39,499 nucleotides of DNA. It comes from Verrucomicrobiota bacterium. GTDB lineage: Bacteria; Verrucomicrobiota; Verrucomicrobiia; Limisphaerales; SXQI01. How positions within the stretch are numbered: the first letter of the stretch is position 1; the number at the start of each line of letters is the position of its first letter. The translations under genes and the position numbers were made by a program. Below are positions 5,282 through 32,328 of the stretch, one piece after another. The stretch lies in assembly GCA_008933045.1 (NCBI GenBank), contig WBXJ01000002.1, positions 1 through 39,499 on the forward strand. The letters run 5' to 3'. The notes under the pieces were generated by a model. That model was not told where the DNA came from. It was given only the letters and a program-made list of their open reading frames with translations, and did not search any database.

Positions 5282-6254
5282 CCTCAGCCTTCGCCTCCGC
5301 AGCTAGCGCGGTGCTCAAATAACGTTCACCCGTGGAACACGCCACGGTGACGATCATTTTTCCACGATTTTCGGGACGCTTTGCCACCTCGATTGCTGCC
5401 CACACGTTGGCCCCACTGGAAATGCCAACAAGGATGCCCTCCTCCTTAGCCAAACGTCGGGCCATCGCGAATGCGTCATCATTGCTGACCTGCACGCATT
5501 CGATGATCTGAGGTTCTCCCTTACTATTGTTAAGGTGTAAATTCTTAGGCACAAACCCCGCGCCAGTGCCTTGGATTTTGTGCGGACCCGGTTTGACAGT
5601 TTGTCCCGTGAGGGTCTGCGTAATCACTGGAGAATCTTGGGGCTCCACCGCAATCGACTGAAAGGAAGGACGCAAGGGCTTGATCACTTCTGTTACCCCA
5701 GTGATCGTTCCTCCAGTACCTACCGCAGAGATAAAGAAATCGACTTGACCCGCTGTGTCCTCCCAGATCTCGAGTGCGGTTGTGCGTCGGTGAATTTCTG
5801 GATTTGAATCATTTTCAAATTGTTGAGGCACCCATGAATTGGGCGTCTCCTGTTGGATTTGGAGGGCACGGTTGATGGCCCCGCGCATCCCTTCGCTTCC
5901 CGGAGTGAGAATAAGTTTGGCGCCGAGCATCGCCAACAGAGTTCGACGTTCCAGAGACATCGTCTCCGGCATGGTCAGGATGAGTTTATAACCTCGTGCC
6001 GCAGCGACAAACGCCAGTGCGATGCCCGTATTGCCACTGGTGGGTTCGACGATGACGGTATCCTGATTGATGAGACCTCGCTTCTCAGCATCATCGATCA
6101 TTGCCATGCCAATTCGATCCTTCACACTGCCCAGCGGATTAAAAAATTCGCACTTGAGCAGAATCGTTGCGTCAACACCGGCGCAAACCTTGTTCAGTCT
6201 CACCAGCGGAGTGCGTCCGACAGTTTCAACGATATTGTTGTAGATGCGTCCCAT
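5271..6254 (-). CDS. cysK: Cysteine synthase A (O-acetylserine sulfhydrylase), PLP-dependent
   Basis: [23 protein letters not shown]-terminus, PLP-lysine motif GSVKDR, and [19 protein letters not shown]. The track ORF extends to 6335; I place the start at ATG 6254, which gives the canonical N-terminus. Confidence 0.85.
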
Positions 6255-16418: not shown

Positions 16419-17591
16419 TCAACGGTAGCCCCAGCCAAAACGATCCGTCAGCGGCCAATACACAAACCAACATTTGCCGATCACATTCGCTTGCGGCACA
16501 TCGCCCCAACCTCTGGAGTCGTAGGAATTTAATGTGTTGTCGCCCATCGCCATGTAGCGATCAGTTCCGACGCGAAACTCTACGGTCTGGTTTTCAAATA
16601 ACGGAGCCAATCCAAACCGCTTGTATTGCGTGGCGACTTGATTATTGATGTGTCCAAGGTAGGGATTCTGGGTTCCCGGAGTGCTGAACGTATAAACTGA
16701 CTCAAAATGGCGTATGGAAGCATCCAAGCGACGACCATCGACCACCAAGTGACGATCATTCCCAATGCGGAGCTTTTCGCCCGGTAGTCCAACCAACCGT
16801 TTGATGTAAAGTTGGTCTTGCGGAAGGTCTGGAATGCCCCGCGTCTTGAAGACAAATATCTCGCCACGTTCCGGACGTCGAAAATTGTAGGTCAATCGAT
16901 CCACTAGCAAATGGTCACCACTGTTTAACTTGAGTTTCACAATGTCCTCGCCTTTGTGATAAAACTGGCCCGGGTGCAGCATTGCTCGTTTGTCTAAATC
17001 ATCAGGCACGAACCAAAGTCGCAATGACTGATTTGCAAAAGAAACGGTCTGAATTTTAATGAACGGAAACACCGTTCGAGGAGCAGAAACAGAGGTAATC
17101 TCACCATCCGTGGGAGCGACAAGATGGTAATAGCAAGAACCACTGACGATAAACTCCTTGATCCGTCCGAACCATGAAGGAACCTCCACGCCAGGCGGAT
17201 CACTTCGTAAATCTTGATGCGTGATTCCAAACAGAGTGGGCTGCATGGATCCTGTAGGAATCTTGGTCAGTTGGAGAAAGAATGTCGTGAACGCCAAGAT
17301 CACAGTGACGGCTAAGCCAATCTCACGAATCTGTTCCCGCATTTGTCCACCAGGAAACGGCTTGAGAACCGAGTTTGCAATCGCTTCGAGACGCTGCATT
17401 GCCGGTTCGATTTGCTTCAGCGGCAAGGTTGCAATCTCTCGATCGAAAGCCTCGACGGCACTTTGAAGCTCTAAGCAACGGGATGGATCTAATAGATCCT
17501 TTTGCTCGGAAATCAAACGCCGAACCTGACGACGCATCTCGCAAGCATGTCGAACGGTTCCTGAGGTTAACCATCGCCAGATCATAACCAT
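16419..17591 (-). CDS. lepB: Signal peptidase I, long form (paralog 2)
   Basis: Ser box IPTGSMQPTL, Lys box YIKRLVGLPGE, GDNTLNSYDSRGWG. I place the start at ATG 17591 (MVMIWRWL...), which shares 1 nt with the upstream TAA (TAATG). This parallels the MLRWIF start of paralog 1. The track start is 17630. Confidence 0.8.
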   Translation of the reverse strand: MVMIWRWLTSGTVRHACEMRRQVRRLISEQKDLLDPSRCLELQSAVEAFDREIATLPLKQIEPAMQRLEAIANSVLKPFPGGQMREQIREIGLAVTVILAFTTFFLQLTKIPTGSMQPTLFGITHQDLRSDPPGVEVPSWFGRIKEFIVSGSCYYHLVAPTDGEITSVSAPRTVFPFIKIQTVSFANQSLRLWFVPDDLDKRAMLHPGQFYHKGEDIVKLKLNSGDHLLVDRLTYNFRRPERGEIFVFKTRGIPDLPQDQLYIKRLVGLPGEKLRIGNDRHLVVDGRRLDASIRHFESVYTFSTPGTQNPYLGHINNQVATQYKRFGLAPLFENQTVEFRVGTDRYMAMGDNTLNSYDSRGWGDVPQANVIGKCWFVYWPLTDRFGWGYR

Positions 17592-18775
17592 TAACGGACT
17601 CCCCAACCAAATCGCTCGGTGATGGGCCAAAATACAAACGCATGACGACCCACCGCTTTTTCTCTAGGAAAATCACCCCAATAGCGAGAATCGTAGCTGC
17701 TCATGGTGTTATCACCGCAGACAAAAAGATGGTTGGTTCGGACAGTAAATTTCGCATTCCCATCCACAAAATGAGGTGCGTAATGCGGAATCTCAGGTCT
17801 CCCAAACTGGCGACCCACTTTGTCGTTCACGTGGCCAGAAAAAAGATCCTCTTTAGGCGGTGCCTTGAAAGAATAAATATTCTCAAAATGAGGCGTGGAC
17901 GCATCCAGCCGTTTTCCATCAATGACAACGTGCCGATCGTCTCCGACTTGAATTGTTTCTCCGCTCAATCCGATCAACCGTTTGATGTAGTGCGTGTTTT
18001 GGGTAATATTCGGAATCCCAGTTGATTCAAAAATAATAATATCCCCGCGTGCTGGAGATCGAACGTTGTAGGCCACGCGATCCACAAACAAACGATCTCC
18101 ACTCGTCACCTTCAACTTGATGATGTCGTCACCTTTCTTGAATTTCTGTCCAACCGTTAACCCAGAACGATTGTAAGGAGGTGCAAACAAGCCATCCGGA
18201 GGCATCCAAACCGTGTGTATTTTTGAACCAACTTTAAATTGTTGGCGGTTGATAAAAGGTAAAAACTGCTTTGGTTCCGCTGCCCCTTCAAAATTACCAT
18301 CCTCCTCTGCCACGATGTGGTAGTAAGATTCTCCTTTGACCAAGAATTTGAAAACTTTTCCTAGAATAGACGGATAAGCAGCCTCCGTTCCTCTTAAATC
18401 TTGGTGAGTAATACCATACAACGTGGGTTGCATCGATCCCGTTGGAATCGCCATCGGTTGTAGGAAAAATGTTCGGATCGCTAAAGCAACAATCAATGCC
18501 ACCAAAGCGACATCGACATTCTCCCGCACATCGGGATTGGGGTAAATCTTGAAGTATTTATCTGCGACTAACGACAACTCCTTGCGTGCGGAAGCGATGC
18601 TGTTTTTTGTGGATTTTCCATCCTTCAGCACCTGCTTAAACTCGATGATGGCAGTTTCAATTTTTTGTCGGTTGACGACCGTTAAAATATCATCCTGAGC
18701 GCGAAGGTGCTTCTCAATGCGCTTGAGAAGCTCATAACCCTCGCGAACTGATTTTGAAAAAATCCAGCGTAGCAT
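17591..18775 (-). CDS. lepB: Signal peptidase I, long form (paralog 1)
   Basis: Ser box IPTGSMQPTL (Ser114), Lys box HYIKRLIGLSGE (Lys265), GDNTMSSYDSRYWG. It lies 18 nt downstream of lepA, the classic lepA-lepB arrangement. Confidence 0.85.
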   Translation of the reverse strand: MLRWIFSKSVREGYELLKRIEKHLRAQDDILTVVNRQKIETAIIEFKQVLKDGKSTKNSIASARKELSLVADKYFKIYPNPDVRENVDVALVALIVALAIRTFFLQPMAIPTGSMQPTLYGITHQDLRGTEAAYPSILGKVFKFLVKGESYYHIVAEEDGNFEGAAEPKQFLPFINRQQFKVGSKIHTVWMPPDGLFAPPYNRSGLTVGQKFKKGDDIIKLKVTSGDRLFVDRVAYNVRSPARGDIIIFESTGIPNITQNTHYIKRLIGLSGETIQVGDDRHVVIDGKRLDASTPHFENIYSFKAPPKEDLFSGHVNDKVGRQFGRPEIPHYAPHFVDGNAKFTVRTNHLFVCGDNTMSSYDSRYWGDFPREKAVGRHAFVFWPITERFGWGVR

Positions 18776-18793: not shown

Positions 18794-20584
18794 TTAGGCT
18801 TTGAGCACTTCGATAAACGCTTCCTGCGGAATTTGTACAGTTCCAAAAGCTTTCATCCGTTTTTTACCTTCCTTTTGCTTCTCCAACAGTTTTCGTTTTC
18901 GAGAAATATCGCCGCCGTAACATTTAGCGGTAACATCTTTTCGCATCGCAGTGACCGTCTCTCGAGCCACAAACTTCCCGCCTACTGCTGCCTGAATAGC
19001 GACCGCATATTGTTGTTTAGGAATAACCTCCTTCAACTTCGCCGCCAAGGCCCGACCTCGGAATTCCGCTTTATCGCGATGGACAATACAGGAAAACGCA
19101 TCCACAGGCTCAGCGTTAACGAGAATATCTAACTTCACCATGTCCGATTCGCGAGGTTCATCATGTTCATAATCCATGGAACCAAATCCTCGTGTGATAC
19201 TCTTGATGCGGTCATGGAAATCGATGAGAATTTCGTTCAATGGCATCCGACTCGATAACATCACCCGTCGTTGGTCGAGCGTTTCGGTGCTTTCGATGAC
19301 CCCGCGCTTTTCAGAGATCAACGCCATCATGTCACCGATGTTATCATTGGGGCAGATCACGAACGCTGTGACCATGGGTTCTTCAATCTTCTCGATAAAA
19401 TTTACTTCCGGCATGAACGCCGGATTATCCACTTCCTTCATCGTGCCGTCCGTCAAATACACGCGGTAAATCACGCTTGGATAAGTCGCGATAATGTCCA
19501 TGTTGTATTCTCGACGCAACCGCTCCTGAACGATCTCCAGATGCAACAATCCAAGAAAACCGCAGCGGAAACCGAAACCTAGCGCGACGGAACTTTCCGA
19601 TTGGTAGACAAAAGCGGAATCATTCAATTGAAGCTTCGCAAGGTTACTCTTCAGGTGTTCATAATCCGCTGTGTTGATCGGATAAATGCCACTGAATACC
19701 ATGGGATGAATTTCCTTGAACCCAGGAAGCGCAGGAGACGGATTGCGCCAGTCGGTTAAGGTATCACCCATCTTCACATCTTTAGGGCTTTTAATATTGG
19801 CCGTGATGTAGCCGGTCTCTCCCAGAGTAAGGCGGTCTCGAATATAAGGCTTAGGATTAAAACTACCCACCTCCTTAATCTCCACGTTCTTTCCCGAATG
19901 CAGCAACTTGATCGTCATCCCTGCTTTCAGCTCCCCGTTGAACACCCGAACATGTGTCACGACACCTTTATACGTATCAAAATACGAATCAAACACCAGG
20001 GCTTGAACCGATTTTTCACCTGTGGGAACTGGTGCCGGCACTCGTTCGACAATCGCTTCCAAAATCTCCTCAATTCCAATCCCTTCCTTGGCCGATGCAA
20101 GGATTGAGGTGTCCCCAGGAATTGCTAAAATTTCCTCTAATTGTGCCTTAGTTTGGGCAACATTCGCATGAGGTAGATCGATCTTGTTGATCACCGGAAT
20201 GATCGTCAGATTCTGCTTCATCGCTAAATGGACATTCGCAACCGTCTGCGCCTCCACACCCTGAGCAGCATCAATAATCAGTAGCGCACCTTCACAAGCA
20301 CTGAGGCTTCGAGAAACTTCATAAGCAAAATCAACATGCCCCGGAGTATCAATGAGGTTTAGCTCATAGGTCTCACCGTTCTTGGCCTTGTAGAGCATCG
20401 TCACTGGATGGGCTTTGATCGTGATGCCGCGCTCCCGTTCTAAATCCATGGAGTCCAATAATTGATCCTGCATTTCCCGTGTGGCGATCGTGCCTGTGAA
20501 ATGCAGTAACCGATCGGAAAGAGTCGTCTTCCCATGATCAATGTGCGCGATGATACTGAAATTCCGTATATACTTTGGATCCAT
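18794..20584 (-). CDS. lepA: Translation elongation factor 4 (LepA/EF4)
   Basis: MDPKYIRNFSIIAHIDHGKTTLSDR (G1), DTPGHVDF (G3), NKIDL (G4) and a LepA-specific C-terminal domain. The start is moved from the track's 20668 to ATG 20584, which gives the canonical N-terminus. Confidence 0.95.
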   Translation of the reverse strand: MDPKYIRNFSIIAHIDHGKTTLSDRLLHFTGTIATREMQDQLLDSMDLERERGITIKAHPVTMLYKAKNGETYELNLIDTPGHVDFAYEVSRSLSACEGALLIIDAAQGVEAQTVANVHLAMKQNLTIIPVINKIDLPHANVAQTKAQLEEILAIPGDTSILASAKEGIGIEEILEAIVERVPAPVPTGEKSVQALVFDSYFDTYKGVVTHVRVFNGELKAGMTIKLLHSGKNVEIKEVGSFNPKPYIRDRLTLGETGYITANIKSPKDVKMGDTLTDWRNPSPALPGFKEIHPMVFSGIYPINTADYEHLKSNLAKLQLNDSAFVYQSESSVALGFGFRCGFLGLLHLEIVQERLRREYNMDIIATYPSVIYRVYLTDGTMKEVDNPAFMPEVNFIEKIEEPMVTAFVICPNDNIGDMMALISEKRGVIESTETLDQRRVMLSSRMPLNEILIDFHDRIKSITRGFGSMDYEHDEPRESDMVKLDILVNAEPVDAFSCIVHRDKAEFRGRALAAKLKEVIPKQQYAVAIQAAVGGKFVARETVTAMRKDVTAKCYGGDISRKRKLLEKQKEGKKRMKAFGTVQIPQEAFIEVLKA

Positions 20585-20657
20585 GTCAATTCTACTAGAC
20601 TGGTCTGAATATCGGCGTACAAACTCTTTCGGGAATCGGCAAGTGCTCCACCCACTC

Positions 20658-20698
20658 CATGACGTCAAGGTCTCAGACCTTCAGCAACATAACGTCAA
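20658..20698. promoter_or_regulatory. Repeat/palindrome cluster in the lepA / AsnB-like divergent region (candidate operator or enhancer site)
   Basis: Direct repeat CAT[G/A]ACGTCAA at 20658-20668 and 20688-20698, 30 nt apart. The first copy contains the palindrome TGACGTCA (20660-20667). Between the repeats lies a perfect 15-nt palindrome AAGGTCTCAGACCTT (20667-20681). Confidence 0.3.
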
Positions 20699-20811
20699 AC
20701 ACTGGGAAGAAAAGGGAAATACAGAACCACACCCCGCAACTCACAGGGTCTTTTTCTCTGAGATCTTAAATTGTTGAAGTGCAGTGGTTTGATTTTCTGC
20801 TAAACAAATCT

Positions 20812-20826
20812 TGGTAGTTTTCTTGC
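20812..20826 (+). promoter_or_regulatory. Candidate sigma-54 (-24/-12) promoter in front of the AsnB-like/radical SAM/halogenase-like operon
   Basis: TGGTAGTTTTCTTGC compared with consensus TGGCACGNNNNTTGC. The GG (20813-14) and GC (20825-26) have the correct 12-nt register, 46 nt upstream of ATG 20872. This is a motif match only. Confidence 0.3.
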
Positions 20827-20871
20827 GCTAATTCGTTTGCGAAATCTCGCTGGGCGGGCTTTATTGTATTG

Positions 20872-22191
20872 ATGCACCACTATGTTGAGCGCGTTGTGGA
20901 TCTCACTGATCCAGACACGAACGAGATTTACAATCTGACCTTGGATCAGGCTCGTGAGCGAGTTTTGAACGGTCGTCCGGAGGAGGTGCGTGGTATTGAT
21001 GGCTCTTTCGCATTAGTGGCGCGTGAGGGTAAGCGGGTGCGGATGGCAAGGTCTTTGGATCGACCGTTGCGTTACTTTTTGGCGAAGCGGCATGAGGGCC
21101 CCGCGTTGGTGGTGGCAGATCGTATGGATACCATCCGCGCTTGGTTGGAGCAGGAAGGGTTTGGGAATCAATTTCATCCGAGTTACACGCGGATGGTGCC
21201 GGCGCATTATGTGGTGGAGATTCAGCTCTTGGGTTGCCCGGATCCAGACCCTGTTTACACTCGTTTTTTTGATCCTCAACGGGATCAGCAGCCTCGGGAT
21301 CTCGCGGAGGTGGGTCGCCGTTATATTGGTGCTTTAGCTGAGGAGATTCAAAAATGGTTAAGTCGGGTTCCTAGCCACGAACCGATTGGGGTTTGTTTTT
21401 CTGGCGGGATTGATAGCGGCGCGGTTTTTTTAACGACTTATCATGTGATGCAGCGGCTTGGGATGAGTCCTAGCCGATTGAAAGCGTTTACCCTCAGTTT
21501 TAGTGAGGGGCCGGACTTGCAGCAGGCTCGCCAATTTCTAGATCAGGTCGGGCTAGGAATGTTCTTGGAACCTATTGAGGCGGACTGCTCGGATCTTAAT
21601 GTGGAGGAAACGCTCCGCATCGTAGAGGACTACAAGCCTTTGGATATTCAATCTGCCAGCATGGCAATCACCCTCTGCCGAAATCTTCGCGCGCGCTATC
21701 CTGATTGGAAATATATTGTGGACGGCGATGGGGGTGATGAGAATCTCAAGGATTATCCGATCGAGGAGAATCCCGAGCTAACCATCCGCAGCGTGGTGCA
21801 TAACCAGATGCTTTATCAAGAGGGATGGGGGGTCGGACGAATTAAGCATTCGTTAACGTATTCTGGGGGACTGAGTCGATCCTACACGCGCACTTATGCT
21901 CCGGCGCGTCATTTTGGGTTTAATGGATTCAGCCCGTTCACCCGCCCCAACGTGATCGAGGTTGCTGAGGGTGTCCCGTTTGTGGATCTGACCGAGTATT
22001 CGGTGGATCGTCTCTACGCGTTGAAGGGTCAGATCGTGGCGCAAGGCGTCAAATCGTTGACCGGTTTGGACATGCCCGTGTTCACGAAACGAAGGTTCCA
22101 ACACGGTGCGATGTCGATGGAAACGATGCGCCGCCATGTGCCCGATCAAGAGGCGCAGTTGCGAAAAGCATTTCTCGCCCTCTATGCCTAA
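20872..22191 (+). CDS. Asparagine-synthetase-B-like adenylating enzyme lacking the N-terminal Cys nucleophile
   Basis: PP-loop VCFSGGIDSGAV (SGGIDS = 21400-21417). Also DGDGGDENLKDYP and GFNGFSPFTRPNVIEVAEGVPF, as in the AsnB synthetase domain. The N-terminus is MHHY (no Cys2) and the N-domain is short (~150 aa), retaining only GIDGSFALVAREGKRV...RPLRYF. Confidence 0.75.
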   Translation: MHHYVERVVDLTDPDTNEIYNLTLDQARERVLNGRPEEVRGIDGSFALVAREGKRVRMARSLDRPLRYFLAKRHEGPALVVADRMDTIRAWLEQEGFGNQFHPSYTRMVPAHYVVEIQLLGCPDPDPVYTRFFDPQRDQQPRDLAEVGRRYIGALAEEIQKWLSRVPSHEPIGVCFSGGIDSGAVFLTTYHVMQRLGMSPSRLKAFTLSFSEGPDLQQARQFLDQVGLGMFLEPIEADCSDLNVEETLRIVEDYKPLDIQSASMAITLCRNLRARYPDWKYIVDGDGGDENLKDYPIEENPELTIRSVVHNQMLYQEGWGVGRIKHSLTYSGGLSRSYTRTYAPARHFGFNGFSPFTRPNVIEVAEGVPFVDLTEYSVDRLYALKGQIVAQGVKSLTGLDMPVFTKRRFQHGAMSMETMRRHVPDQEAQLRKAFLALYA

Positions 22192-23191
22192 CCACGGGTC
22201 GGAGGCTCCATCTGGCGAACTTGACTGGCTTCCCTATCCTGAATCTGCAGCGCAACGAACTCGTTGGATCACGAGGCTGCGTCCGGAACGTGCTCTGACA
22301 AATTTCGAGCAACCCGTTGCCATGTTTGTCGAGAACGAGCGAAACGCTACGGGTCAAATTGAGCCGGTGCTCACCGTGATTTTGACGAGTCGGGAATGCG
22401 GTTGGCACTGTTTGATGTGCGATCTCTGGAAGCATACCGCAACCTCCACACCTCCTGTCGGATCGATTCCGAGTCAGATTGAGCATGCGCTGCTCCAGTT
22501 TCCTGGGATCAAATCCATCAAGTTGTATAATAGTGGGAGTTTTTTTGATCCCAAAGCCATCGCGCCCCAAGAGGATCGGCGGATCGCGGAATTGCTGAAT
22601 GGATTCAGCCGAGTCATCGTGGAAAGTCACCCACGCCTTGTCGGTGAGCGAGCACGTCGTTTTCGTGATCAACTTGCTGGGCAATTGGAAATCGCTGTCG
22701 GCCTAGAGACCGTCGATGAACCCACTCTGGAAAAGCTCAATAAACGCGTTACGTTGGCGGATTTTGAGAAGATGGCTCTTTGGATGCAGGCAGAACGAAT
22801 CGATTTGCGAACCTTTATCGTTGTGCGGGCTCCGTTTCAAACCGAGGAGAGCGGAGCGTCTTGGGCCTGTCGCTCGATCGATTTTGCGTTCGATAATTTA
22901 GGAGCCACCGTCGCTTCTCTGATTCCGACACGGGGAGGAAATGGGGCGTTGGAAGCACTCAGTCAACAAGGATTGTTCTCACCTCCAAGACTCGAAACGT
23001 TGGAAGCTGTCACGGCATATGGCGTGCAACGAGGGGGTGGCCGTGTCTTTGCTGATCTGTGGAACCTAGACTCCCTAGCGGTCTGTCCTGCTTGCTTTCC
23101 CGCTCGTCGAAATCGTCTCGAGATCATCAATCACACTCAGCGCATTCCGGAAGGAATTCCATGTTCGCACTGCAGTTTGCCCTCTTCATGA
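22184..23191 (+). CDS. Radical SAM protein, TIGR01210/RaSEA-like (Elp3-related) family
   Basis: CX3CX2C cluster ECGWHCLMCD (22397-22420). IKLYNSGSFFDPKAI, VESHPRLV and EIAVGLETVDEPTLEKLNKR motifs recall the TIGR01210 family (from memory). The start is placed at ATG 22184, which overlaps the upstream stop (ATGCCTAA). The track start is 22106. Confidence 0.7.
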   Translation: MPNHGSEAPSGELDWLPYPESAAQRTRWITRLRPERALTNFEQPVAMFVENERNATGQIEPVLTVILTSRECGWHCLMCDLWKHTATSTPPVGSIPSQIEHALLQFPGIKSIKLYNSGSFFDPKAIAPQEDRRIAELLNGFSRVIVESHPRLVGERARRFRDQLAGQLEIAVGLETVDEPTLEKLNKRVTLADFEKMALWMQAERIDLRTFIVVRAPFQTEESGASWACRSIDFAFDNLGATVASLIPTRGGNGALEALSQQGLFSPPRLETLEAVTAYGVQRGGGRVFADLWNLDSLAVCPACFPARRNRLEIINHTQRIPEGIPCSHCSLPSS

Positions 23192-24759
23192 TCGCGCCGC
23201 AATTATCGCTCTGGTTTGACACCACGATTATCGGATCAGGTTTTGGTGCGTCGATTCTAGCCATGATCCTGCGACGCGCTGGACAGAAGGTATTACTCGT
23301 GGAAAAATACCGGCATCCCAAATTTGCCATCGGCGAATCCTCCACACCGTTAGCAAATCTGTTATTGGAAGAAATTGCATACGATTCAAATCTTCCCAAC
23401 CTCCGGAATTTGACGGAATGGGGACGGTGGCAAACTCATTGTCCTCAATTGCCTTGCGGCCTGAAGCGCGGGTTTTCGTTCTACCAGCATGAAGCCGGGT
23501 TTCCGCTGAAGCCAAGCGATCGTGCAACTCAACTCCTTGTCGCAGCAAGTCCGAATGACCACGTTGCCGATACGCACTGGTATCGCCCAGCGTTCGATGA
23601 GTTCTTAGTAAAGGAAGCGCAATCGCACGGTGTCGATTATCAACCCGACACAACGTTGAAAAGTCTGACTCGCGCCGGTGAATCTTGGGACCTGATGCTG
23701 CAATCGCTCGGGAGCAGCCACGCCGTTCGCACGAAGTTTATCGTCGATGCCACTGGCCCGAGGGGATGTCTAACTCGGCACTTTCATATTCCTCATTCAC
23801 AACCGGCGGACATGCCGAAAACTCAAACTCTGTTCGCTCATTTTACAGGAGTTCGCCGACTCGAAGATTGCGACCATGGCTTTGCGAACCCCACTCCCCC
23901 CTACCCTGTGGATGATTCCGCCGTCCATCACCTGATCGACGGAGGATGGGTCTGGGTTTTACGCTTTAACAATGGGGTGACGAGTGTGGGAGTTGTGTTG
24001 GAGGATGATGCAGCGAACCAGATCGGGCTTCGAGAGTTGGAGAGCGGTTGGCAAACCCTCCTCAAACTTTACCCAAGCTTACAAGCCTCGCTTGGAACTG
24101 CTCAACGCACCACTAACTGGCACTACATCGCTCAGGTTGCCTCCAGAGCCGAGACGGTTTTCGGTGAGGGTTGGGCACTCCTGCCTTCGGCTGTCGGTTT
24201 TATTGATCCAATGCTTTCCACAGGGTTTGCATTAACATTACTAGGTGTTCGACGGCTTGCCACAATACTCACTCAGACTGCCTGCGGACTTCCCCAACAA
24301 GACGCACTTCAGAATTATAAAACCATCACACTGCTCGAGTTAGACCACACCGCAGAATTGATCGGAGCACTTTACGCTAACCTGAAGAATTTGGAAAACT
24401 TTCGTGACCTGACCCTCCTCTATTTTGCTGCTGCGAGTTACGCTGAAACTGTTCGACGATTAGGTCATCCGGAAAAGGCACAGAGTTTCCTGCTCGCATC
24501 CGATCCACGGTTTGGCCCAGCAGCACGCGGAATATGCCAAGCAGCCAAGCTCAATCCTCATCGAAGCGTTCAAGCACAAGTCCACAGACTTATCGAGGCG
24601 ATCGACATCGCGGGCTTAACAAACCGAGGTGCCAATAATTGGTATCCAGTAAGAGCGGATGACCTACTCAATAGCGCAACGAAAGTAGGAGCCAGCCGAC
24701 CCGAAATTCGCGCAATGCTAAAACTCCTTAACGTTGACTTCGACGGTCTGAGCGGCTAA
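23188..24759 (+). CDS. FAD-dependent halogenase-like flavoprotein (Trp_halogenase/PF04820-like)
   Basis: Rossmann IIGSGFGASILAMIL...LLVEK, PKFAIGESSTP, GGWVWVLRF (WxWxIP-like, Pro replaced by Arg) and GFIDPMLSTGFAL. The start is placed at ATG 23188, giving an ATGA overlap with the radical SAM stop; ATG 23161 is also possible. Confidence 0.7.
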   Translation: MIAPQLSLWFDTTIIGSGFGASILAMILRRAGQKVLLVEKYRHPKFAIGESSTPLANLLLEEIAYDSNLPNLRNLTEWGRWQTHCPQLPCGLKRGFSFYQHEAGFPLKPSDRATQLLVAASPNDHVADTHWYRPAFDEFLVKEAQSHGVDYQPDTTLKSLTRAGESWDLMLQSLGSSHAVRTKFIVDATGPRGCLTRHFHIPHSQPADMPKTQTLFAHFTGVRRLEDCDHGFANPTPPYPVDDSAVHHLIDGGWVWVLRFNNGVTSVGVVLEDDAANQIGLRELESGWQTLLKLYPSLQASLGTAQRTTNWHYIAQVASRAETVFGEGWALLPSAVGFIDPMLSTGFALTLLGVRRLATILTQTACGLPQQDALQNYKTITLLELDHTAELIGALYANLKNLENFRDLTLLYFAAASYAETVRRLGHPEKAQSFLLASDPRFGPAARGICQAAKLNPHRSVQAQVHRLIEAIDIAGLTNRGANNWYPVRADDLLNSATKVGASRPEIRAMLKLLNVDFDGLSG

Positions 24760-24803: not shown

Positions 24804-27800
24804 ATGAAAAGCTTGTTTTGCTATTTGTTTGCTTGGTCGCTGTTTTGCGGAGCTGTGCGTCCTTGTTTTGGTGCCGAAATATTCGGAAACGGATCGAGTT
24901 GGCGATTTTTTAAAGGCACAGCGGCACCCTCTGCGCCCGATGCGACGGCTTGGCGAACATCTGGCTTCGACGACACTGCCTGGCTGACTGGTGTTGCAAG
25001 CTTCTATTACGGCGATCCATTTTCGGGCACGTTGCTCGACGATATGTACGGTCGCTACAGCACGGTGTTTTTAAGAAAACGATTTGATGTTTTCAATCCG
25101 GCAGAGATTCAATCTCTGACTTTAAACGCAGCGTGTGACGATGGTTTTATTTGTTGGATTAATGGTAAAGAGGTGACTCGCTTTAATGTCGGTGCGGGAG
25201 AGATCTCATTCGACGGACTTGCAACAACACCAGTGAATCCCGATCCCGCAGTTTTTAACGATTATCCCATCACCGACCCTCGCAGCGTTTTGGTGGCAGG
25301 CTCGAACCTACTTGCGATTCAATTGCTCAACACTTCGTTGACCAGCAGCGATATTGTCTGGGATGCGTCCCTGTCGTTTACGGGGGATATGGAGGCTCCT
25401 GTGATCTCGAGCGTGATCCCTCCGGCGGGATCGTCCTTAAAAGAGTTTTTTGCTGTGGAGATTCTTTTTAGTGAAGCCGTGACCGGTGTAGACGCAGGCG
25501 ACCTCTTAATAAACGGGGTCGGCGCAACCAATGTTGTACAGGTGACCCCAGGTCAATTTGTTTTTTCTTTTCCTAAGCAACCTACGGGTGCTGTCTCGGT
25601 TGCATTTCTTGAAAACCATGGGATTACGGATACTGCCGCAATCCCGCATCCCTTCAAGCAGTCAGGTTGGAGTTACACTGTCGATCCTACGCTGGTTGTT
25701 GCCGGATTATTCATCACTGAGTTCATGGCTGAGAATAATGGGGTGCTACGCGATGAGGATGGAGATAAATCAGATTGGATCGAGTTGTTCAACTCTTCCA
25801 ACCGAACAATTTCGTTGCTCGGTTGGGGTTTGACTGATGATGCGTTGGATTTACGGAAATGGACCTTTCCTCCGACTTCCATCGCAGCGGGAGCGAGGCT
25901 CGTCGTTTTTGCATCCGGAAAAGATCGCACCAATGCTGCGGCGCGACTTCATACAAACTTTAAGCTGGATGATCGCGGAGAATTCCTAGCGCTCGTCAAT
26001 CCTGCGGGCGAAAGTGAATCCGCGTTCTCGCCGACCTTCCCTGTTCAGAGGAAAAACTTCAGCTACGGACGAGCCACCGGTGCTCTCAACGTGACGGGGT
26101 ATTTCCCCTCACCGACCCCCGGCACAGCGAACTCAACCAGCGGAATTGGCTTTGCCCCCGATGTGAAATTCTCGGCGAACGGAGGTGCCTATCTGACTAA
26201 TTTTAACCTCTCCATTTCTCTGAAAGTGCCACTGACCGGTGCCGAGATTCGCTATACCACGAATGGCACAATGCCGTTAAGCACGTCGCTGCTCTACACG
26301 AATTCGCTTTTTATCAGCAATTCGATTCAACTTCGGGCTCGAGCCTTTGCTCTGGGAGTTTTGCCAGGAGATCCACACACTGAGTTTTATCTCAAACTGG
26401 AAGGAAGCACACCGACGTTTAATTCCACTCTGCCCGTGCTCGTGTTGCATAATTTCGGCAAATCGACACCGCCCGCTACAGGCCAGCAAGATGCCTACCT
26501 GCAGGTTTACGAACCGGTTCAAGGTATCGCCTCCTTCACCAATGCCCCGACGTTAAGTCGCCGTGTAGGGATCGGCGCACGAGGCTCCAGCACCTTGGGT
26601 TTACCCAAAGTCAGCTTGAATCTAGAGCTGCGCGATGAATTTGGTGCCGATGATAAACACACACTTCTTGGTTTGCCTGAGGATTCAGACTGGGTGCTTT
26701 ATGCTCCAAACAGTTTTGAGCCGGTGTTGATCCACAATCCGTTCATGCACCAACTCAGCCGTGATATCGGTCGATACTCCTCACGGACGCGTTTTGTAGA
26801 ATTATTTTTAGTAAAAGATACGATGGCTGGCAGTCTCCGCTACCCCACGACCTACAATGGGATCTACGTGCTCGAGGAACGAGTTCGCCGCAGCAAAGAC
26901 CGAGTCGATATCGACAAGTTGGAGCCCGAAAATCTCACCGCCCCCTCTGTTACTGGAGGGTTCATTCTTAAAGTAGATCGCACTGGCCCCGGTGAAGGTG
27001 GAATCTACGGAGCCAGTCAATCGATGGTTTTTGTCGAACCTGACGAGACAGAAATTGAAGCACCCGTGCGTGCGCCGCAACTGCAGTATTTACGCGATTT
27101 CTTCACAAGGTACGGGAGCGCACTTTATGGAGCTAATTGGAAGGATCCCACGAACGGTTACAGGGCTTATTTTGATGTCGAGGCTGGCATTGATCATCAC
27201 CTACTAAATGTACTCTCGTTCAACGTCGATGCCCTGCGTTTGAGTACCTATTTTTATAAGCCTCGCAATGGGAAAATCACCTTCGGACCATTGTGGGATT
27301 TTGATCGGGCCCTTGGATCCATGGATGGACGCGATGCGAATCCGAAAGCGTGGACAAGCAGTGGCGGGACGGATTACTTCAATGAGACTTCACAAATGTG
27401 GTGGGGGAAAATGTTCACGGACATCGATTTCTACCAACAATGGATTGACCGCTACCAACAGCTTCGATCATCGCATTTTTCGACAACAAATCTTTACCGA
27501 CTCGTCGAAGAATTAACCACTGAGGTGCGCAAATCACAACCGCGTGAACAAACTAAATGGGGAGTGGCACCGCGGGGAGGTTATCAAGGTGAAATCAATT
27601 TGATGAAGACTTGGCTTTCTAATCGTGTCATTTTTATGGACAGTCAATGCCTTGTCCGTCCGACTAATACCACCCCTTCCGGCAAGTTCTTGAACTCGAT
27701 TTCGGTAACGCTCAAAGGGCCTACCAACGCGACTATTTACTACACACTCGATGGCACCGACCCTCGATTGGCGGGAGGAAATGTTCATCCGAACGCGTTG

Positions 27801-29852
27801 ATCGCTACGAATATTCCGTTGGTTATTTCTACCAATTCTCGATTGATCGCTCGTCTGAATAATAATGCGTTTAAGGCGAACACGGGAACGTTGAATCCCC
27901 CCTTGGTCTCCAAATGGTCTGGGGTAACGGAAGCCAGTTATTACAATACCACTCCGCCGCTATTGCTGACGGAGATCATGTATCACCCCGAATCGCCCTC
28001 ACAGGATTCCACGAATAGCGCGACTGATTTTGAATTCTTAGAATTCAAGAATATCTCATCATCATCGCTGAATCTTGTCGGTTTTAAACTATCCGGAGGT
28101 GTTCAGTTTAACTTTACCCCGAGTAGCCTAGTCACGAACTTGGCGTCGGGTGCGAGGGTCTTAATCGTTAAAAACAGGGCGTCATTTTTATCAAGATATG
28201 GCACGACTAACCTGATCGCGGGCGAGTTTACCGGTAACCTTGGAAACGGATCCAATCGCTTAATTATCAACGGACCACTCGGAGAGCCTATCAGCGATGT
28301 GACCTACGAGAGTCGTTGGTTGCCGCTTTCGGATGGTTTTGGTTTCTCGCTCACGCTAGGTGATGAATCTGTTGCCCAAGACTTGATCGGTGCTGAAGCA
28401 CAATGGAGATTAAGTAGTTTACCGGGCGGATCTCCAGGGAACGTTGACCTTGCACCGAAAACTATCCCAAGAGTCTGGATCAACGAAGTGCTCACCCATA
28501 CCGACCCACCGTTGCTTGACGTGGTGGAGTTTTTGAATGGGGAGGATCAAACTATCGACATCACCGGATGGTGGTTAAGCGATGATTATCGTGATCCTAA
28601 GAAATACAAATTGCCTCAAGGTAGCGTGCTAAGTGCGAACGGATACTCGGTCGTTGACGAGAATTCGTTTCGAGGAGGAACCACAGGATTCTCTTTCAGT
28701 GCCATGGGTGATTCCGCACATCTTTTTAGCGCGGACGCCGCTGGTGAACTCACAGGCTACCATCACGGATTCAGTTTCGGAGCAGCCTTCAACGGGTTCA
28801 GTTTCGGGCGATTTGTCAGTAGCGATGGAATTGAACATTTTGTTACTCAGGAAAAACGCACATTAGGTCAACTCAACTCGGCACCGCTCGTGGGGCCCCT
28901 CGCCATTACGGAAATCCACTTTAATCCACTTTCCATTACCACGAATAACAACACGTTGGATGAATTCATAGAAGTGCGAAATATTTCGACTTTCACTGTG
29001 CCACTCTGGGATCGACTACACGAAACCAATAGTTGGCATCTGCGTGGGGGAGTTGACTTTGACTTTCCTCGATCTCTAGAGATTCCTCCCGGAGGTTTCG
29101 TTCTCGTGGTGGGGTTTAATCCTGTCGTTGATATCGGAACGATTTCAAGTTTTCGGGCCAAATTTCAAGTTCCAGTAACCGTCCCTGTGCTCGGTCCTTG
29201 GAATGGTAATTTGGAAAACTCGGGCGAATCTATCGAATTGAAGCAGCCCGACGAACCGGTTCAGTCGTCCCTTCTCGACGAGCAGGAGGTGCCTTACGTG
29301 TCGGTTGAAAAAATACGATATCTGCCCGTCTCGCCTTGGCCAACGACGGCTTCAGGCACAGGAAAATCGCTTCAACGGGTAGCCATCCGAGCCTTTGGCG
29401 ATGATCCAACCAATTGGCAATCCGCAACCCCCACAGCGGGCAAACTGAACCCCGCGACGGATGTCGATGATTTTGATCGTGACGGTTTGCCCGATGCTTG
29501 GGAAGACACGTTCGGATTAGACACGCTTTCGAACCTAGGCGACGCAGGTGCGACCGGGGATCCTGATCAGGATGGCCAGTCGAACCTAGAGGAATACATC
29601 GCCGGAACTGATCCAAAAAATCCAGCAAGCAATCTGTCGATGAAGGCGGAGTTTGGTTCCAATGGAATTACTTTAACTGTGTCTGGTTTACCTAGTCGCA
29701 GTTACACGTTCTGGGTTCGTGAATCTCTCGATGTTGGGGAGTGGAAACTTCTCACCCATTTTCCAACTCTCGTAGACTCGAAGATTCTGCCCTTCACAGT
29801 GCAAAACGAATTTGAATCGCGATTCTATCGAGTCAGTGTTGTGCGCGACTAA
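24804..29852 (+). CDS. Giant secreted CotH kinase-family protein with four lamin-tail (LTD) domains and C-terminal TSP3-like calcium-binding repeats
   Basis: Signal peptide MKSLFCYLFAWSLFCGAVRPCFGA.
- N-terminal jelly-roll (WRFFKG...DDTAW...LRKRFDV...DDGFICWINGKEV)
- Ig-like domain
- LTD1 ~25700-26075 (ITEFMAENN...DWIELFN)
- CotH ~26430-27645 (RTRFVELFL...YNGIYVLEERVRRSKDRVDI)
- LTD2 ~27960-28440
- LTD3 ~28473-28885
- LTD4 ~28900-29440
- DxDxDG-type repeats at 29460-29625. Confidence 0.8.
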   Translation: MKSLFCYLFAWSLFCGAVRPCFGAEIFGNGSSWRFFKGTAAPSAPDATAWRTSGFDDTAWLTGVASFYYGDPFSGTLLDDMYGRYSTVFLRKRFDVFNPAEIQSLTLNAACDDGFICWINGKEVTRFNVGAGEISFDGLATTPVNPDPAVFNDYPITDPRSVLVAGSNLLAIQLLNTSLTSSDIVWDASLSFTGDMEAPVISSVIPPAGSSLKEFFAVEILFSEAVTGVDAGDLLINGVGATNVVQVTPGQFVFSFPKQPTGAVSVAFLENHGITDTAAIPHPFKQSGWSYTVDPTLVVAGLFITEFMAENNGVLRDEDGDKSDWIELFNSSNRTISLLGWGLTDDALDLRKWTFPPTSIAAGARLVVFASGKDRTNAAARLHTNFKLDDRGEFLALVNPAGESESAFSPTFPVQRKNFSYGRATGALNVTGYFPSPTPGTANSTSGIGFAPDVKFSANGGAYLTNFNLSISLKVPLTGAEIRYTTNGTMPLSTSLLYTNSLFISNSIQLRARAFALGVLPGDPHTEFYLKLEGSTPTFNSTLPVLVLHNFGKSTPPATGQQDAYLQVYEPVQGIASFTNAPTLSRRVGIGARGSSTLGLPKVSLNLELRDEFGADDKHTLLGLPEDSDWVLYAPNSFEPVLIHNPFMHQLSRDIGRYSSRTRFVELFLVKDTMAGSLRYPTTYNGIYVLEERVRRSKDRVDIDKLEPENLTAPSVTGGFILKVDRTGPGEGGIYGASQSMVFVEPDETEIEAPVRAPQLQYLRDFFTRYGSALYGANWKDPTNGYRAYFDVEAGIDHHLLNVLSFNVDALRLSTYFYKPRNGKITFGPLWDFDRALGSMDGRDANPKAWTSSGGTDYFNETSQMWWGKMFTDIDFYQQWIDRYQQLRSSHFSTTNLYRLVEELTTEVRKSQPREQTKWGVAPRGGYQGEINLMKTWLSNRVIFMDSQCLVRPTNTTPSGKFLNSISVTLKGPTNATIYYTLDGTDPRLAGGNVHPNALIATNIPLVISTNSRLIARLNNNAFKANTGTLNPPLVSKWSGVTEASYYNTTPPLLLTEIMYHPESPSQDSTNSATDFEFLEFKNISSSSLNLVGFKLSGGVQFNFTPSSLVTNLASGARVLIVKNRASFLSRYGTTNLIAGEFTGNLGNGSNRLIINGPLGEPISDVTYESRWLPLSDGFGFSLTLGDESVAQDLIGAEAQWRLSSLPGGSPGNVDLAPKTIPRVWINEVLTHTDPPLLDVVEFLNGEDQTIDITGWWLSDDYRDPKKYKLPQGSVLSANGYSVVDENSFRGGTTGFSFSAMGDSAHLFSADAAGELTGYHHGFSFGAAFNGFSFGRFVSSDGIEHFVTQEKRTLGQLNSAPLVGPLAITEIHFNPLSITTNNNTLDEFIEVRNISTFTVPLWDRLHETNSWHLRGGVDFDFPRSLEIPPGGFVLVVGFNPVVDIGTISSFRAKFQVPVTVPVLGPWNGNLENSGESIELKQPDEPVQSSLLDEQEVPYVSVEKIRYLPVSPWPTTASGTGKSLQRVAIRAFGDDPTNWQSATPTAGKLNPATDVDDFDRDGLPDAWEDTFGLDTLSNLGDAGATGDPDQDGQSNLEEYIAGTDPKNPASNLSMKAEFGSNGITLTVSGLPSRSYTFWVRESLDVGEWKLLTHFPTLVDSKILPFTVQNEFESRFYRVSVVRD

Positions 29853-30624: not shown

Positions 30625-32328
30625 TCAAGGTGGTGTGCCTTTGGTGAGTAGTGCTTTCCATTTGGCGGATTGTTCCGGTTTTTTAAGGATTTCAGCCAGT
30701 GTCGAGAGTTGACTGTAAATCGCCGCTGGATCTGCAAAGTCGGGAAACGCTTTTAATAATTCTTGGAGTAGTTCGTAACTCTCGTTCTCACGTTGCAAGC
30801 CATTGAGAATTGGAACTACTCGAAACGTGATTCGCACACGTTGTTGTGGTGATGGACTCTTTTTCAATGCTTCCAAATAAGAGGTGATTGCCTCCGGAAT
30901 TTGTTTCTCATCAAAGGATATATCCCCCACCTTTTCCAACATCACCGCACTCGTGGCAAACCCCTGTTGGCTGGTTAAAAAACCTCGCACCTCATCCGGC
31001 GAAGTTTTCAACTTGAGGGAACGATTAGCTACCACGACATTGCCCCAATCAGCCTTCTTATTTTTCTCAATCAAAAGTCGCTGATGCAACTTGCCACCAT
31101 TTTGAGCGAAGGGACGATAGAGGGGATCTCCCAGCACAATAATTTGCCACGAAAGCCATGCCTGACTCGCCAACGCTGCCTCTCCTAATGTAAAACCACC
31201 AAAAATCCACCGGCTTAGAAATACAGAAATATCAGGTGTACCAGCCAAAAAAGGTTCTTCAGTGCAACCCATCGTCGCGGTGGCTCCTCGGGCTAATAAT
31301 GGGCCAGCCCAAAAGTCATGATCGCTCCGAAGCACATTCGCACTCGATGAGTGCAGATGGTAGGCAAATGCGCCTGGGACAAATTCGACTTGAGCACGAG
31401 CAAACGGGCCGTCGTATTTTCCTGAATACCAACCCCCATAAATCGCACAATCGCTTAATGGAAATGTTGCTGGAAAAACTTCGGATGTGGAATCGACCCA
31501 TGTATCAAAACCATAGTTTCGAGTGAGGTCCGCACATTGCTTAAACATCTCGTCCCCTTGTTTGTAAGCACCTTCCGTTAGGCCACGTGAATCGAAATAA
31601 GCTCGTCCCCAAAGCCCATCCTGTTCTGCTAGAAGTGATTTTTCGACCATTCCCCGTGCGATAGCTGCACTCGGCCCATCTAACCTCGCTACAATGATTA
31701 TCCCATTGGTGGAATGTAATTGTGCGATATTAGTCGCTGCATAAGTCGGGTTATTGAAAGGGCCAGTGAGTATTAGTTTCTTGTCAGCTAACGGAAGCAA
31801 TGAGAGTTCGCTATCCACCGAGGCCCCGTTCTTCCGCAACGGTTCTGGAAGAGTTAAACCTCCAGCCTCTTGCAACGAAGGATCATCTGCCACCTTCACT
31901 GGGACGCCATAACACAACACCAGATAGCGAAACGCAGCCTCTCCTACTGTTGTTCCCGTCGCGTCCTTTCCTTTGGCGGACGTCTTGAAGTTGAGCAGGT
32001 GGTTTTTCGCCAGAAACTTCAGTAATGGCTTCTGCAATTCTTCGTTGAAATCTTTACGCGTGATCTCTTCATTTTTGGAGAGGTTGAAGCCTACAATTTG
32101 CTGGCGAGGAACTAGCCGTTTCTCGGCATAGAACTCAGCTAATTGCTTAGATTCAGGCATTTGTGAGTTATAAACCACCACAACTGACCGACCAAGAACT
32201 GCCGGGTCGTTTGAATCCTCCGCCTGCAAATCAGAAGCAACGTATAAAAAAAACACAACCAAACCGGGGTTGACAAGCCAGCTCCAACGGTTGAAAGAAA
32301 TCCAGCAGAACAATTTGCTCATAATCAT
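30625..32328 (-). CDS. Secreted or anchored hypothetical protein, TIGR03790-like, with a helical TPR-like C-terminus
   Basis: N-terminal signal/anchor. VVVVYNSQMPESKQLAEFYAEKR opening and the GATATMGCTEEPF...WQIIVLGDPLYRPF core match my memory of the TIGR03790 family. Function is unknown. Confidence 0.55.
   Translation of the reverse strand: MIMSKLFCWISFNRWSWLVNPGLVVFFLYVASDLQAEDSNDPAVLGRSVVVVYNSQMPESKQLAEFYAEKRLVPRQQIVGFNLSKNEEITRKDFNEELQKPLLKFLAKNHLLNFKTSAKGKDATGTTVGEAAFRYLVLCYGVPVKVADDPSLQEAGGLTLPEPLRKNGASVDSELSLLPLADKKLILTGPFNNPTYAATNIAQLHSTNGIIIVARLDGPSAAIARGMVEKSLLAEQDGLWGRAYFDSRGLTEGAYKQGDEMFKQCADLTRNYGFDTWVDSTSEVFPATFPLSDCAIYGGWYSGKYDGPFARAQVEFVPGAFAYHLHSSSANVLRSDHDFWAGPLLARGATATMGCTEEPFLAGTPDISVFLSRWIFGGFTLGEAALASQAWLSWQIIVLGDPLYRPFAQNGGKLHQRLLIEKNKKADWGNVVVANRSLKLKTSPDEVRGFLTSQQGFATSAVMLEKVGDISFDEKQIPEAITSYLEALKKSPSPQQRVRITFRVVPILNGLQRENESYELLQELLKAFPDFADPAAIYSQLSTLAEILKKPEQSAKWKALLTKGTPP

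Follow-up and report, generated by a model that had tools for sequence, protein, structure and literature searches.

In Euryarchaeota, archaeosine formation depends on the pair ArcS and RaSEA: the nitrogen donor of ArcS is lysine, and not NH4+, Asn or Gln, and ArcS is active only when complexed with RaSEA, which then turns preQ0-Lys into archaeosine (PMC11298593). The chemistry of AsnB-like enzymes includes amidation, lactam formation and nitrile formation (PMC13060819), and ammosamide biosynthesis combines AsnB-type amidation with a small-molecule halogenase (PMC12715798). Other related systems are the halogenases PltM and CtcP, which belong to phloroglucinol and tetracycline chemistry, respectively, and the radical S-adenosylmethionine (SAM) enzyme QhpD with the flavoprotein QhpG, which act on a subunit of quinohemoprotein amine dehydrogenase. 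Here we describe a three-gene operon, g1-g2-g3 (the triad), found on contig WBXJ01000002.1 of a Verrucomicrobiota bacterium (assembly GCA_008933045.1). Its products resemble an AsnB-like enzyme, RaSEA and the PltM/CtcP halogenases. The window means the whole stretch of DNA analysed, that is positions 1 to 39,499 of this contig (39.5 kb). The genes of the operon are as follows.

20872..22191, + strand: g1, 439 aa, predicted AsnB-like PP-loop adenylating enzyme (Pfam PF00733)
22184..23191, + strand: g2, 335 aa, radical-SAM protein related to TIGR01210
23188..24759, + strand: g3, 523 aa, flavin-dependent halogenase-like protein (Pfam PF04820)

Together the three genes make up a single, translationally coupled operon, whose products are cytoplasmic enzymes. 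A direct sequence check showed that all lie on the + strand, with overlaps of 8 nt between g1 and g2 and of 4 nt between g2 and g3. At the first junction, the g1 stop codon TAA (22189-22191) follows the g2 ATG, which starts at 22184, and the shared sequence is ATGCCTAA (22184-22191). At the second, the g2 stop codon TGA (23189-23191) and the g3 ATG from 23188 together read ATGA at 23188-23191. An alternative in-frame ATG at 23161 would extend the g3 product to 532 aa and is the start picked by gene callers in near-identical contigs; g2 is overlapped by g3 with either start (23188 or 23161). The open reading frame (ORF) coordinates, the overlaps and all the motifs quoted in the initial annotation of this DNA were borne out in the sequence.

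The operon is also conserved as a unit across several bacterial phyla. In a pattern scan of species-representative genomes, one for each species, at least 588 stretches were confirmed, from which the 80 best loci, ranked by similarity to the Verrucomicrobial query, were kept. These belong mostly to Acidobacteriota, and also to Verrucomicrobiota, Armatimonadota, Bacteroidota and Methylomirabilota. The order g1-g2-g3 on a single strand was found in 79 of the 88 fetched loci; five of the nine exceptions are located at or near contig ends, and the remaining four, with full flanks, have g2-g3 and no g1 within 10 kb. Start and stop codons could overlap by 4 nt at 39 of the 74 g1/g2 junctions and at 52 of the 75 g2/g3 junctions, counts that are biased towards overlap because the script took the candidate start nearest the upstream stop. 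Across phyla, the homologues share 48-54% (g2) and 41-50% (g3) identity with the window proteins. More than 6,333 database homologues were found for g2 and more than 8,000 for g1, and a profile search of 1.84 billion cluster representatives returned 559 clusters at E<=1e-30. A distant Planctomycete-like genome still carries the full triad in order, with g2 and g1 homologues that are 33% and 58% identical to those of the window, respectively. Since g1 lies directly upstream of g2 even in distant members (L171, L172 and L173, one of which is this full-triad genome), g1-g2 is an old core pair and g3 a frequent third partner. No fourth gene consistently co-directional with the triad was found in the loci.

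The unity of the operon is therefore supported by the overlaps, by the kept order and strand, by its presence in at least five phyla and by the distant triad. The proposal of the initial annotation that the three genes form one module agrees with their families being neighbours across phyla. Chance adjacency of three unrelated genes was ruled out by the conserved synteny, and an apparent g1-g2 fusion in L029 was discounted, as this ORF holds half of g1 only and is frameshift-like.

The product of g2 has the hallmarks of the radical SAM superfamily, with a partial TIM barrel and the CX3CX2C motif (C-GWH-C-LM-C, 22397-22420), the cysteines of which (C72, C76 and C79) are invariant in the family alignment. 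Further cysteines at the C-terminus are invariant (C301, C304 and C327) or nearly so (C330), and the translation contains NSGSFFDP and GLETVD. Its AlphaFold model (predicted local distance difference test, pLDDT, 90.8) resembles Elp3, MiaB, TsrM and viperin; the nearest solved folds are Elp3, MiaB/RimO and TsrM, at a TM-score of about 0.45. A PDB sequence search with g2 gave no relative, even with a profile, and its score on PF04055 (23.8 bits) is slightly under the cut-off of 29.5. Among NCBIfam models, TIGR01210, the RaSEA family, is by far the best match (86.1 bits, E 2.5e-24), the next family having an E-value of 0.005. This score falls short of the equivalog cut-off of 212 bits.

The link to TIGR01210, which had first been proposed from motifs, was strengthened by an archaeal homologue, P0390, found on an archaeal-type contig (L170). 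Over 281 residues, P0390 and g2 share 35% identity (E 3e-60). The score of P0390 on TIGR01210 is 168.7 bits, and its gene is preceded by a Vut_1 family gene and followed by a DUF5591 ArcS-like gene. Its distance from g2 is about that of the most distant bacterial triad members. The homology of g2 to RaSEA-type proteins is nearly full length and includes the CX3CX2C, NSGSFFD and GLE motifs and a C-terminal CxxC. In addition, g2 and RaSEA are each tightly paired with a nitrogen-transfer enzyme that works without glutamine or a glutaminase (for ArcS, see PMC11298593). On the other hand, the partner of g2 is the ATP-dependent AsnB-like g1 and not the tRNA-guanine transglycosylase (TGT)-like ArcS, the triad has no TGT or preQ0 context and adds a halogenase-like gene, and its hosts are bacterial, mostly from soil. 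No ArcS/DUF5591, TGT or Que gene occurs in the window, and none recurs among the neighbours of 83 non-redundant loci, for which ORFs of at least 90 aa were called by a crude procedure. Because the g2 family fails the curated cut-off and because none of these genes recurs nearby, it is, as judged from its sequences, a genuine sister of RaSEA and not RaSEA itself.

The same data bear on the possibility that g2 is a true RaSEA, acting in a bacterial archaeosine-like modification of 7-deazaguanine in tRNA or DNA. RaSEA is indeed the closest named family of g2, the archaeal homologue linked to ArcS is 35% identical to it, and QueC is a PP-loop ATPase, like g1. Nevertheless, we consider this explanation extremely improbable, given the 86 bits of g2 against a cut-off of 212 and the lack of TGT, ArcS (DUF5591/PUA) and QueC/D/E both in the window and as recurrent neighbours at the 83 loci. 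A PltM-like halogenase, moreover, has no role in any known deazaguanine pathway, and Rfam detected no preQ1 riboswitch in the window or in five other loci.

The protein encoded by g1 belongs to the asparagine synthase superfamily. It matches PF00733 (Asn_synthase) at residues 165-303 only (E 4.9e-14, 53.2 bits; gathering cut-off 21), and its SGGxDS-type PP-loop, SGGIDS, is encoded by TCTGGCGGGATTGATAGC at 21400-21417; the translation also carries DGDGGDENLKDYP. It is not a glutamine-hydrolysing AsnB. Its N-terminus reads MHHY (MHQY in the family consensus) and has no Cys2 glutaminase nucleophile, and it scores 43.7 bits on TIGR01536 (cut-off 267) and 21.1 bits on PRK09431 (cut-off 499). The missing Cys2 had already been reported in the initial annotation. 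The shortened AsnB N-domain described there could not be confirmed: residues 1-165, searched as an isolated domain, matched no Pfam family even at E<=10, and the structural model is unreliable in this part. The C-terminal pieces searched alone against Pfam also gave nothing.

Sequence matches of g1 in the PDB are asparagine synthetases only, over about 130 residues including the PP-loop, and its acidic DGDGGDE aligns with SGEGSDE of ASNS. Neither beta-lactam synthetase nor carbapenam synthetase (CarA) gave a PDB sequence match at E<=1. The AlphaFold model is poor (mean pLDDT 59), with the N-domain and residues 287-338 below 50. With the confidently modelled part, Foldseek retrieved ASNS, carbapenam synthetase, beta-lactam synthetase and TsnB9, the TM-score being about 0.4 for beta-lactam synthetase and CarA. 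As in beta-lactam synthetase, carbapenam synthetase, the lasso cyclases, TsrC/ScdTA, PesC and TsnB9, the PP-loop adenylation domain of g1 comes without a Cys nucleophile. Unlike what is seen in this group, whose members have no glutaminase activity or an altered chemistry, the sequence of g1 matches asparagine synthetases only and its N-terminal 165 residues match no family. The likeness to beta-lactam synthetase, carbapenam synthetase and the lasso cyclases is at the fold level only, and no matching pathway neighbours were found in the window or at the 83 loci.

The g1 family is also unusually conserved across phyla, far more than is usual for enzymes of secondary metabolism. Identity to the window protein in other phyla is 61-74% in most cases and 47-49% in Chthonomonadales and Armatimonadaceae, and the alignment contains long invariant stretches. 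Recent horizontal transfer was ruled out as the cause of this high identity, since g2 and g3 of the same operon are only 48-54% and 41-50% identical, and the GC content is only a little higher (0.53 compared with about 0.49). As a separate observation, the triad (21001-24000) has a GC content of 0.53-0.54 and the neighbouring 10 kb one of about 0.45-0.51, a small rise that is within the range seen elsewhere in the window.

Glutaminase-less AsnB-like enzymes include the lasso cyclases and the peptide-amidating or nitrile-forming TsrC, ScdTA and PesC (PMC13060819), and radical-SAM enzymes and halogenases are common tailoring enzymes of peptides made by the ribosome and modified after translation (RiPPs) (PMC12715798, PMC13060819). 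The triad might then be a RiPP cluster, of the lasso-like or C-terminal-amidation type, whose precursor is encoded elsewhere in the genome; at locus L058, a transglutaminase-like gene is found directly upstream. This explanation seems very unlikely to us. A precursor ORF would not fit next to the operon in the window, where 203 nt separate it from the upstream gene and 44 nt from the downstream one, and the triad has neither the adjacent precursor nor the RiPP recognition element (RRE) by which such clusters are recognized. No co-directional small gene, RRE, protease or exporter recurs among the ORFs of at least 90 aa that were screened at the loci. Moreover, g1 has no PDB sequence match beyond asparagine synthetases at E<=1, and a cross-phylum identity of 61-74% is atypical of RiPP enzymes. 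In line with the initial annotation, the 39.5-kb window contains no nonribosomal peptide synthetase or polyketide synthase (NRPS/PKS), precursor peptide, RRE or adjacent transporter/exporter.

The third gene, g3, encodes a protein with the flavin adenine dinucleotide (FAD) motif of the PF04820 halogenases (55.7 bits; cut-off 21). Its best PDB matches are PltM (6bzt, E 1e-41) and CtcP (7v0b, E 1.6e-34), over about 350 residues, and its translation contains GSGFGAS, PKFAIGESSTP, CGLKRGFSF, GGWVWVLRF and FIDPMLSTG. In the alignment with PltM, GLKRGFSF falls on GIKLGFSF, whose Lys is the catalytic residue of PltM, and GGWVWVLRF falls on EGWLWVIPF. Like PltM and CtcP, g3 keeps GxGxxG, GES..P, the catalytic-Lys motif and FxDPxxSxG. 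The exception is WxWxIP, which reads WVWVLR. The conservation of these motifs in 70 g3 homologues was as follows.

GxGxxG-type FAD motif: 64/70
IGES..P: 67/70
CG.K.G[FY].F, or more narrowly CG[LIV]KRGF[TS]F (catalytic Lys): 58/70
FxDPxxSxG: 66/70
GGWxWxxxF: 66/70

In most of the homologues checked, WxWxIP is replaced by WxWxL with R, Q, H or N as the next residue, and IP was present in none of the listed variants. The Pro-to-Arg change, which had been pointed out in the initial annotation, is thus real; rather than being a quirk of this window, it is a trait of the family. Judging by this motif, both halogenation and hydroxylation would remain open to g3. The protein further differs from PltM and CtcP in having no polyketide or NRPS context and no adjacent flavin reductase, none being found next to g3 in the window. 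It also matches QhpG (74.8 bits; cut-off 240) and, weakly, LodB and GoxB.

Taken together, these features suggest that g1 and g2 could be a bacterial counterpart of the archaeal ArcS/RaSEA pair, performing an amine-relay amidation, and that g3 could halogenate or oxidise the same substrate. By analogy with the described systems, we give this reading a probability of roughly 0.35. The AsnB-type adenylation site of g1 comes without a glutaminase to supply ammonia. In the proposed mechanism, g1 would activate a carboxylate of the substrate as an acyl-AMP and condense it with an amine that belongs to a carrier amino acid; by analogy with ArcS, this amine would be the epsilon-amine of lysine. Through a 5'-deoxyadenosyl radical, g2 would then cut off the carrier skeleton, leaving a primary amide or amidine on the substrate. 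The g3 protein, as a putative FADH2-dependent enzyme of the PltM/CtcP type with the Lys kept, would chlorinate, or possibly hydroxylate, an electron-rich ring of the same molecule. The substrate would most likely be a small aromatic acid and the product a halogenated aromatic amide or amidine, which in many genomes would probably serve, or attach to, the secreted FG-GAP/ASPIC beta-propeller proteins considered below. The g1-g2 pairing itself is favoured because g1 is upstream of g2 in L171, L172 and L173 and because the pair occurs without g3 in L043.

Several points weigh against this mechanism. The lysine relay is purely an analogy: ArcS is not of the AsnB type, and its substrate is a nitrile and not a carboxylate. 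An AsnB-like domain could also use free ammonia, as PesC can (PMC13060819). The structural model of g1 is, as said, poor (mean pLDDT 59), and WxWxIP is altered in most of the g3 homologues checked, so that g3 may not halogenate. At the level of gene content, four loci from Verrucomicrobiota and Armatimonadota (L014, L057, L058 and L085) have g2-g3 without g1 within 10 kb, and the loci show no flavin reductase, transporter or regulator that consistently accompanies the operon. Finally, an 896-aa ORF that includes a g2-type radical-SAM domain (L168 and L169, see below) has housekeeping flanks (CTP synthase and a CTP_transf_3 cytidylyltransferase), with g1 and g3 absent nearby.

In many genomes the triad is associated with genes for exported proteins. 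Neighbour clustering showed that 49 of the 83 non-redundant loci have FG-GAP/UnbV_ASPIC (CRTAC1-like) paralogues, including a 1,200-aa member bearing TPR repeats, no more than 10 kb from the triad. In 42 of these 83 loci, a membrane protein of 290 aa belonging to the NQR2/RnfD/RnfE family (30.5 bits; cut-off 27.7) is encoded near the triad. Among the 80 loci of the genome scan, FG-GAP/ASPIC genes are close to the triad in 43 of the 56 from Acidobacteriota and, elsewhere, in two from Armatimonadota (L038 and L055), one from Bacteroidota (L043) and one from Verrucomicrobiota (L078). In Acidobacteriota, the FG-GAP module usually lies on the strand opposite to the triad, either downstream and convergent or upstream, and the arrangements differ in other phyla. 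In a Bryobacteraceae locus (L063), the triad, the FG-GAP/ASPIC genes and the RnfD-like gene form one overlapping operon. In a Bacteroidetes metagenome-assembled genome from groundwater (L043:2352-13391), g1-g2 is part of a co-directional operon with three FG-GAP/ASPIC genes and a TPR protein; a 693-aa multihaem cytochrome c takes the place of g3, and there is no halogenase-like gene.

The reverse search agreed with this association, since, of the 18 metagenomic loci found through the RnfD-like membrane protein and flanked by at least 7 kb in both directions, 9 carry the triad. In addition, an ORF of 896 aa, recovered from two independent samples (sequencing runs; L168:8142-10832 and L169:8136-10826), joins a g2-type radical-SAM domain, a lipobox/transmembrane-like segment (LLARLLVIALFGC) and an FG-GAP/UnbV_ASPIC domain. 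The link is suggestive and not universal: the 39.5-kb window has no FG-GAP/ASPIC gene, and only one of the nine Verrucomicrobiota loci has one.

These observations are the basis of an alternative in which the triad is a protein-maturation system, modifying an FG-GAP/UnbV_ASPIC or other exported protein in the cytoplasm before export. Here, a carboxylate of the protein would be amidated or cross-linked by g1, a Lys-linked residue would be the target of radical chemistry by g2, and oxidation or halogenation by g3 would take place on a Trp or Tyr, following the logic of QhpD and QhpG on the quinohemoprotein amine dehydrogenase subunit or of anSME on sulfatases. We regard this alternative as possible, though doubtful. 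It would fit the frequency of FG-GAP/ASPIC and RnfD-like neighbours and their varied arrangements, the single operon of L063, the co-operonic g1-g2 of L043, the result of the reverse search, the 896-aa ORF, the unusual conservation of g1, and the matches of g3 to QhpG (74.8 bits) and, more weakly, to LodB/GoxB. A radical-SAM enzyme and a halogenase-fold flavoprotein are indeed found together in the Qhp system (the latter also in LodB/GoxB) and, like the triad in many genomes, have a genomic link to exported proteins. However, g2 is not of the SPASM type as QhpD is, the triad has no small substrate subunit and no dedicated protease or exporter, and the score of g3 is far under the QhpG cut-off of 240. 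Furthermore, the substrates of PltM and CtcP, to which g3 is by far most closely related, are free small molecules, half of the FG-GAP modules are without the triad, and the association comes mostly from one phylum, so that inherited gene order may partly explain it. The absence of FG-GAP/ASPIC genes from the window, and from all Verrucomicrobiota loci except one, also argues against maturation.

Elements of both explanations could be combined. The g1 and g2 proteins would then perform an ATP-driven, amino-acid-relay nitrogen transfer of a kind not recognised before and, with g3, install a new modification or cofactor on, or for, the secreted FG-GAP/ASPIC (CRTAC1-like) beta-propeller proteins; we consider this combination unlikely. 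The small-molecule amidation by g1 and g2, followed by g3, is the reading that we prefer.

The FG-GAP/ASPIC genes themselves are often organized in a highly conserved module of four genes, whose products are a TPR+FG-GAP protein (about 1,200 aa), an FG-GAP/ASPIC protein (about 600 aa), the RnfD-like membrane protein (about 290 aa) and another FG-GAP/ASPIC protein (about 640 aa). This module was seen at L075:12513-20732 (Granulicella sp. L46), L004, L019, L063, L078 and L089-L167, and lies beside the triad about half of the time. Its RnfD-like protein has an invariant FFMITDPxTT, and the module as such has no curated-family match.

Concerning the novelty of the operon, the profile searches against Pfam, NCBIfam and TIGRFAM and the Foldseek comparison of the models, both suggested in the initial annotation, were carried out and support the families given there (AsnB-like, TIGR01210-type and PF04820), which the Pfam, NCBIfam and PDB searches found correct as nearest relatives. 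All three proteins score below the curated equivalog cut-offs, and none is orthologous to a characterised enzyme. The PADLOC defence-system models gave no match to the triad, and no description of it was found in curated families, Rfam or the open-access literature; a match of the cluster to an already described pathway received no support from NCBIfam, PADLOC, Rfam or that literature. The superfamilies are familiar ones. The novelty lies in the combination of an AsnB-like protein that lacks a glutaminase with a sister of RaSEA, in the breadth of this pairing and in its link to FG-GAP/ASPIC proteins.

The operon is present in at least several hundred species-level genomes and represented by thousands of metagenomic proteins, largely from dominant soil phyla. 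Its carriers include the cultured bacteria Granulicella sp. L46 (L075), Acidobacteriaceae bacterium KBS 96 (L019) and Acidobacterium sp. S8 (L027). With a bacterial, mesophilic sister of RaSEA that has a wholly different partner, the generality of the carrier-amine and radical-trimming chemistry becomes testable. Some of the halogenase-like genes counted in soil metagenomes may be g3 homologues, although these differ in their key motif from proven halogenases. Soil Acidobacteriota and related phyla are rich in FG-GAP/ASPIC (CRTAC1-like) proteins, and the link of these proteins to the triad, including the single-ORF fusion, offers a first experimental handle on this very large secreted family, which has no assigned function in the libraries searched.

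Two further features were observed around the triad in other genomes. An ABC transporter of the SsuA/NMT1 type (substrate-binding protein, permease and ATPase) recurs beside it (L019:12533-16527, L051, L063, L087 and L038); its ATPase family was found at 14 of the 83 non-redundant loci, in some of them alongside a small heavy-metal-associated (HMA) protein. This recurrence may hint at a transported small molecule or a link to metal. In a Blastocatellia locus (L045), two Acido-Lenti-1 RNAs (RF01687), at 5851-5895 (-) and 5992-6036 (+), scored about 39 bits each (gathering score 37). The two copies are about 100 nt apart on opposite strands, approximately 3 kb upstream of the triad.

In the window, the operon is flanked by the following features.

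18794-20668, - strand: lepA, upstream flank of the operon
20669..20871, + strand: lepA-g1 intergenic region, 203 nt between divergent genes, presumed to hold the operon promoter and 5' leader
24804-29852, + strand: CotH/lamin-tail-domain (LTD) protein, 1682 aa, 44 nt 3' of g3

An Rfam scan of the intergenic region (20669..20871) gave no match even at E<=1, and Rfam detected no riboswitch or leader upstream of the operon, whether in the window or at the five other loci checked. A consensus scan found no sigma-70-like promoter in this region, and the number of hits in a promoter/terminator scan of the window was not above that of shuffled sequence. The giant CotH protein (24804-29852, +) is secreted and has lamin-tail domains, a CotH kinase-like domain and CHB_HEX_C/Fn3_assoc modules; being on the same strand after a gap of 44 nt, its gene may be co-transcribed with the triad. 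The lepA and CotH flanks are present as described in the initial annotation. They are incidental, the recurrent neighbours elsewhere being the FG-GAP/ASPIC proteins, and both were ruled out as functional partners since they adjoin the triad in near-identical contigs only.

The remaining content of the window consists of housekeeping genes. Directly downstream of lepA, two tandem paralogues of signal peptidase I (Peptidase_S26; 16419-18775, -), of 403 and 394 aa, have long N-terminal extensions that are similar to each other. An ORF of 567 aa (30625-32328, -) is without a Pfam match and is also called as a gene in related contigs. At 2465-5281 (-), a fusion protein of 938 aa combines an RMMBL (metallo-beta-lactamase RNA-specificity) region with a complete ATP-dependent DNA ligase, including its N, adenylation and C domains.

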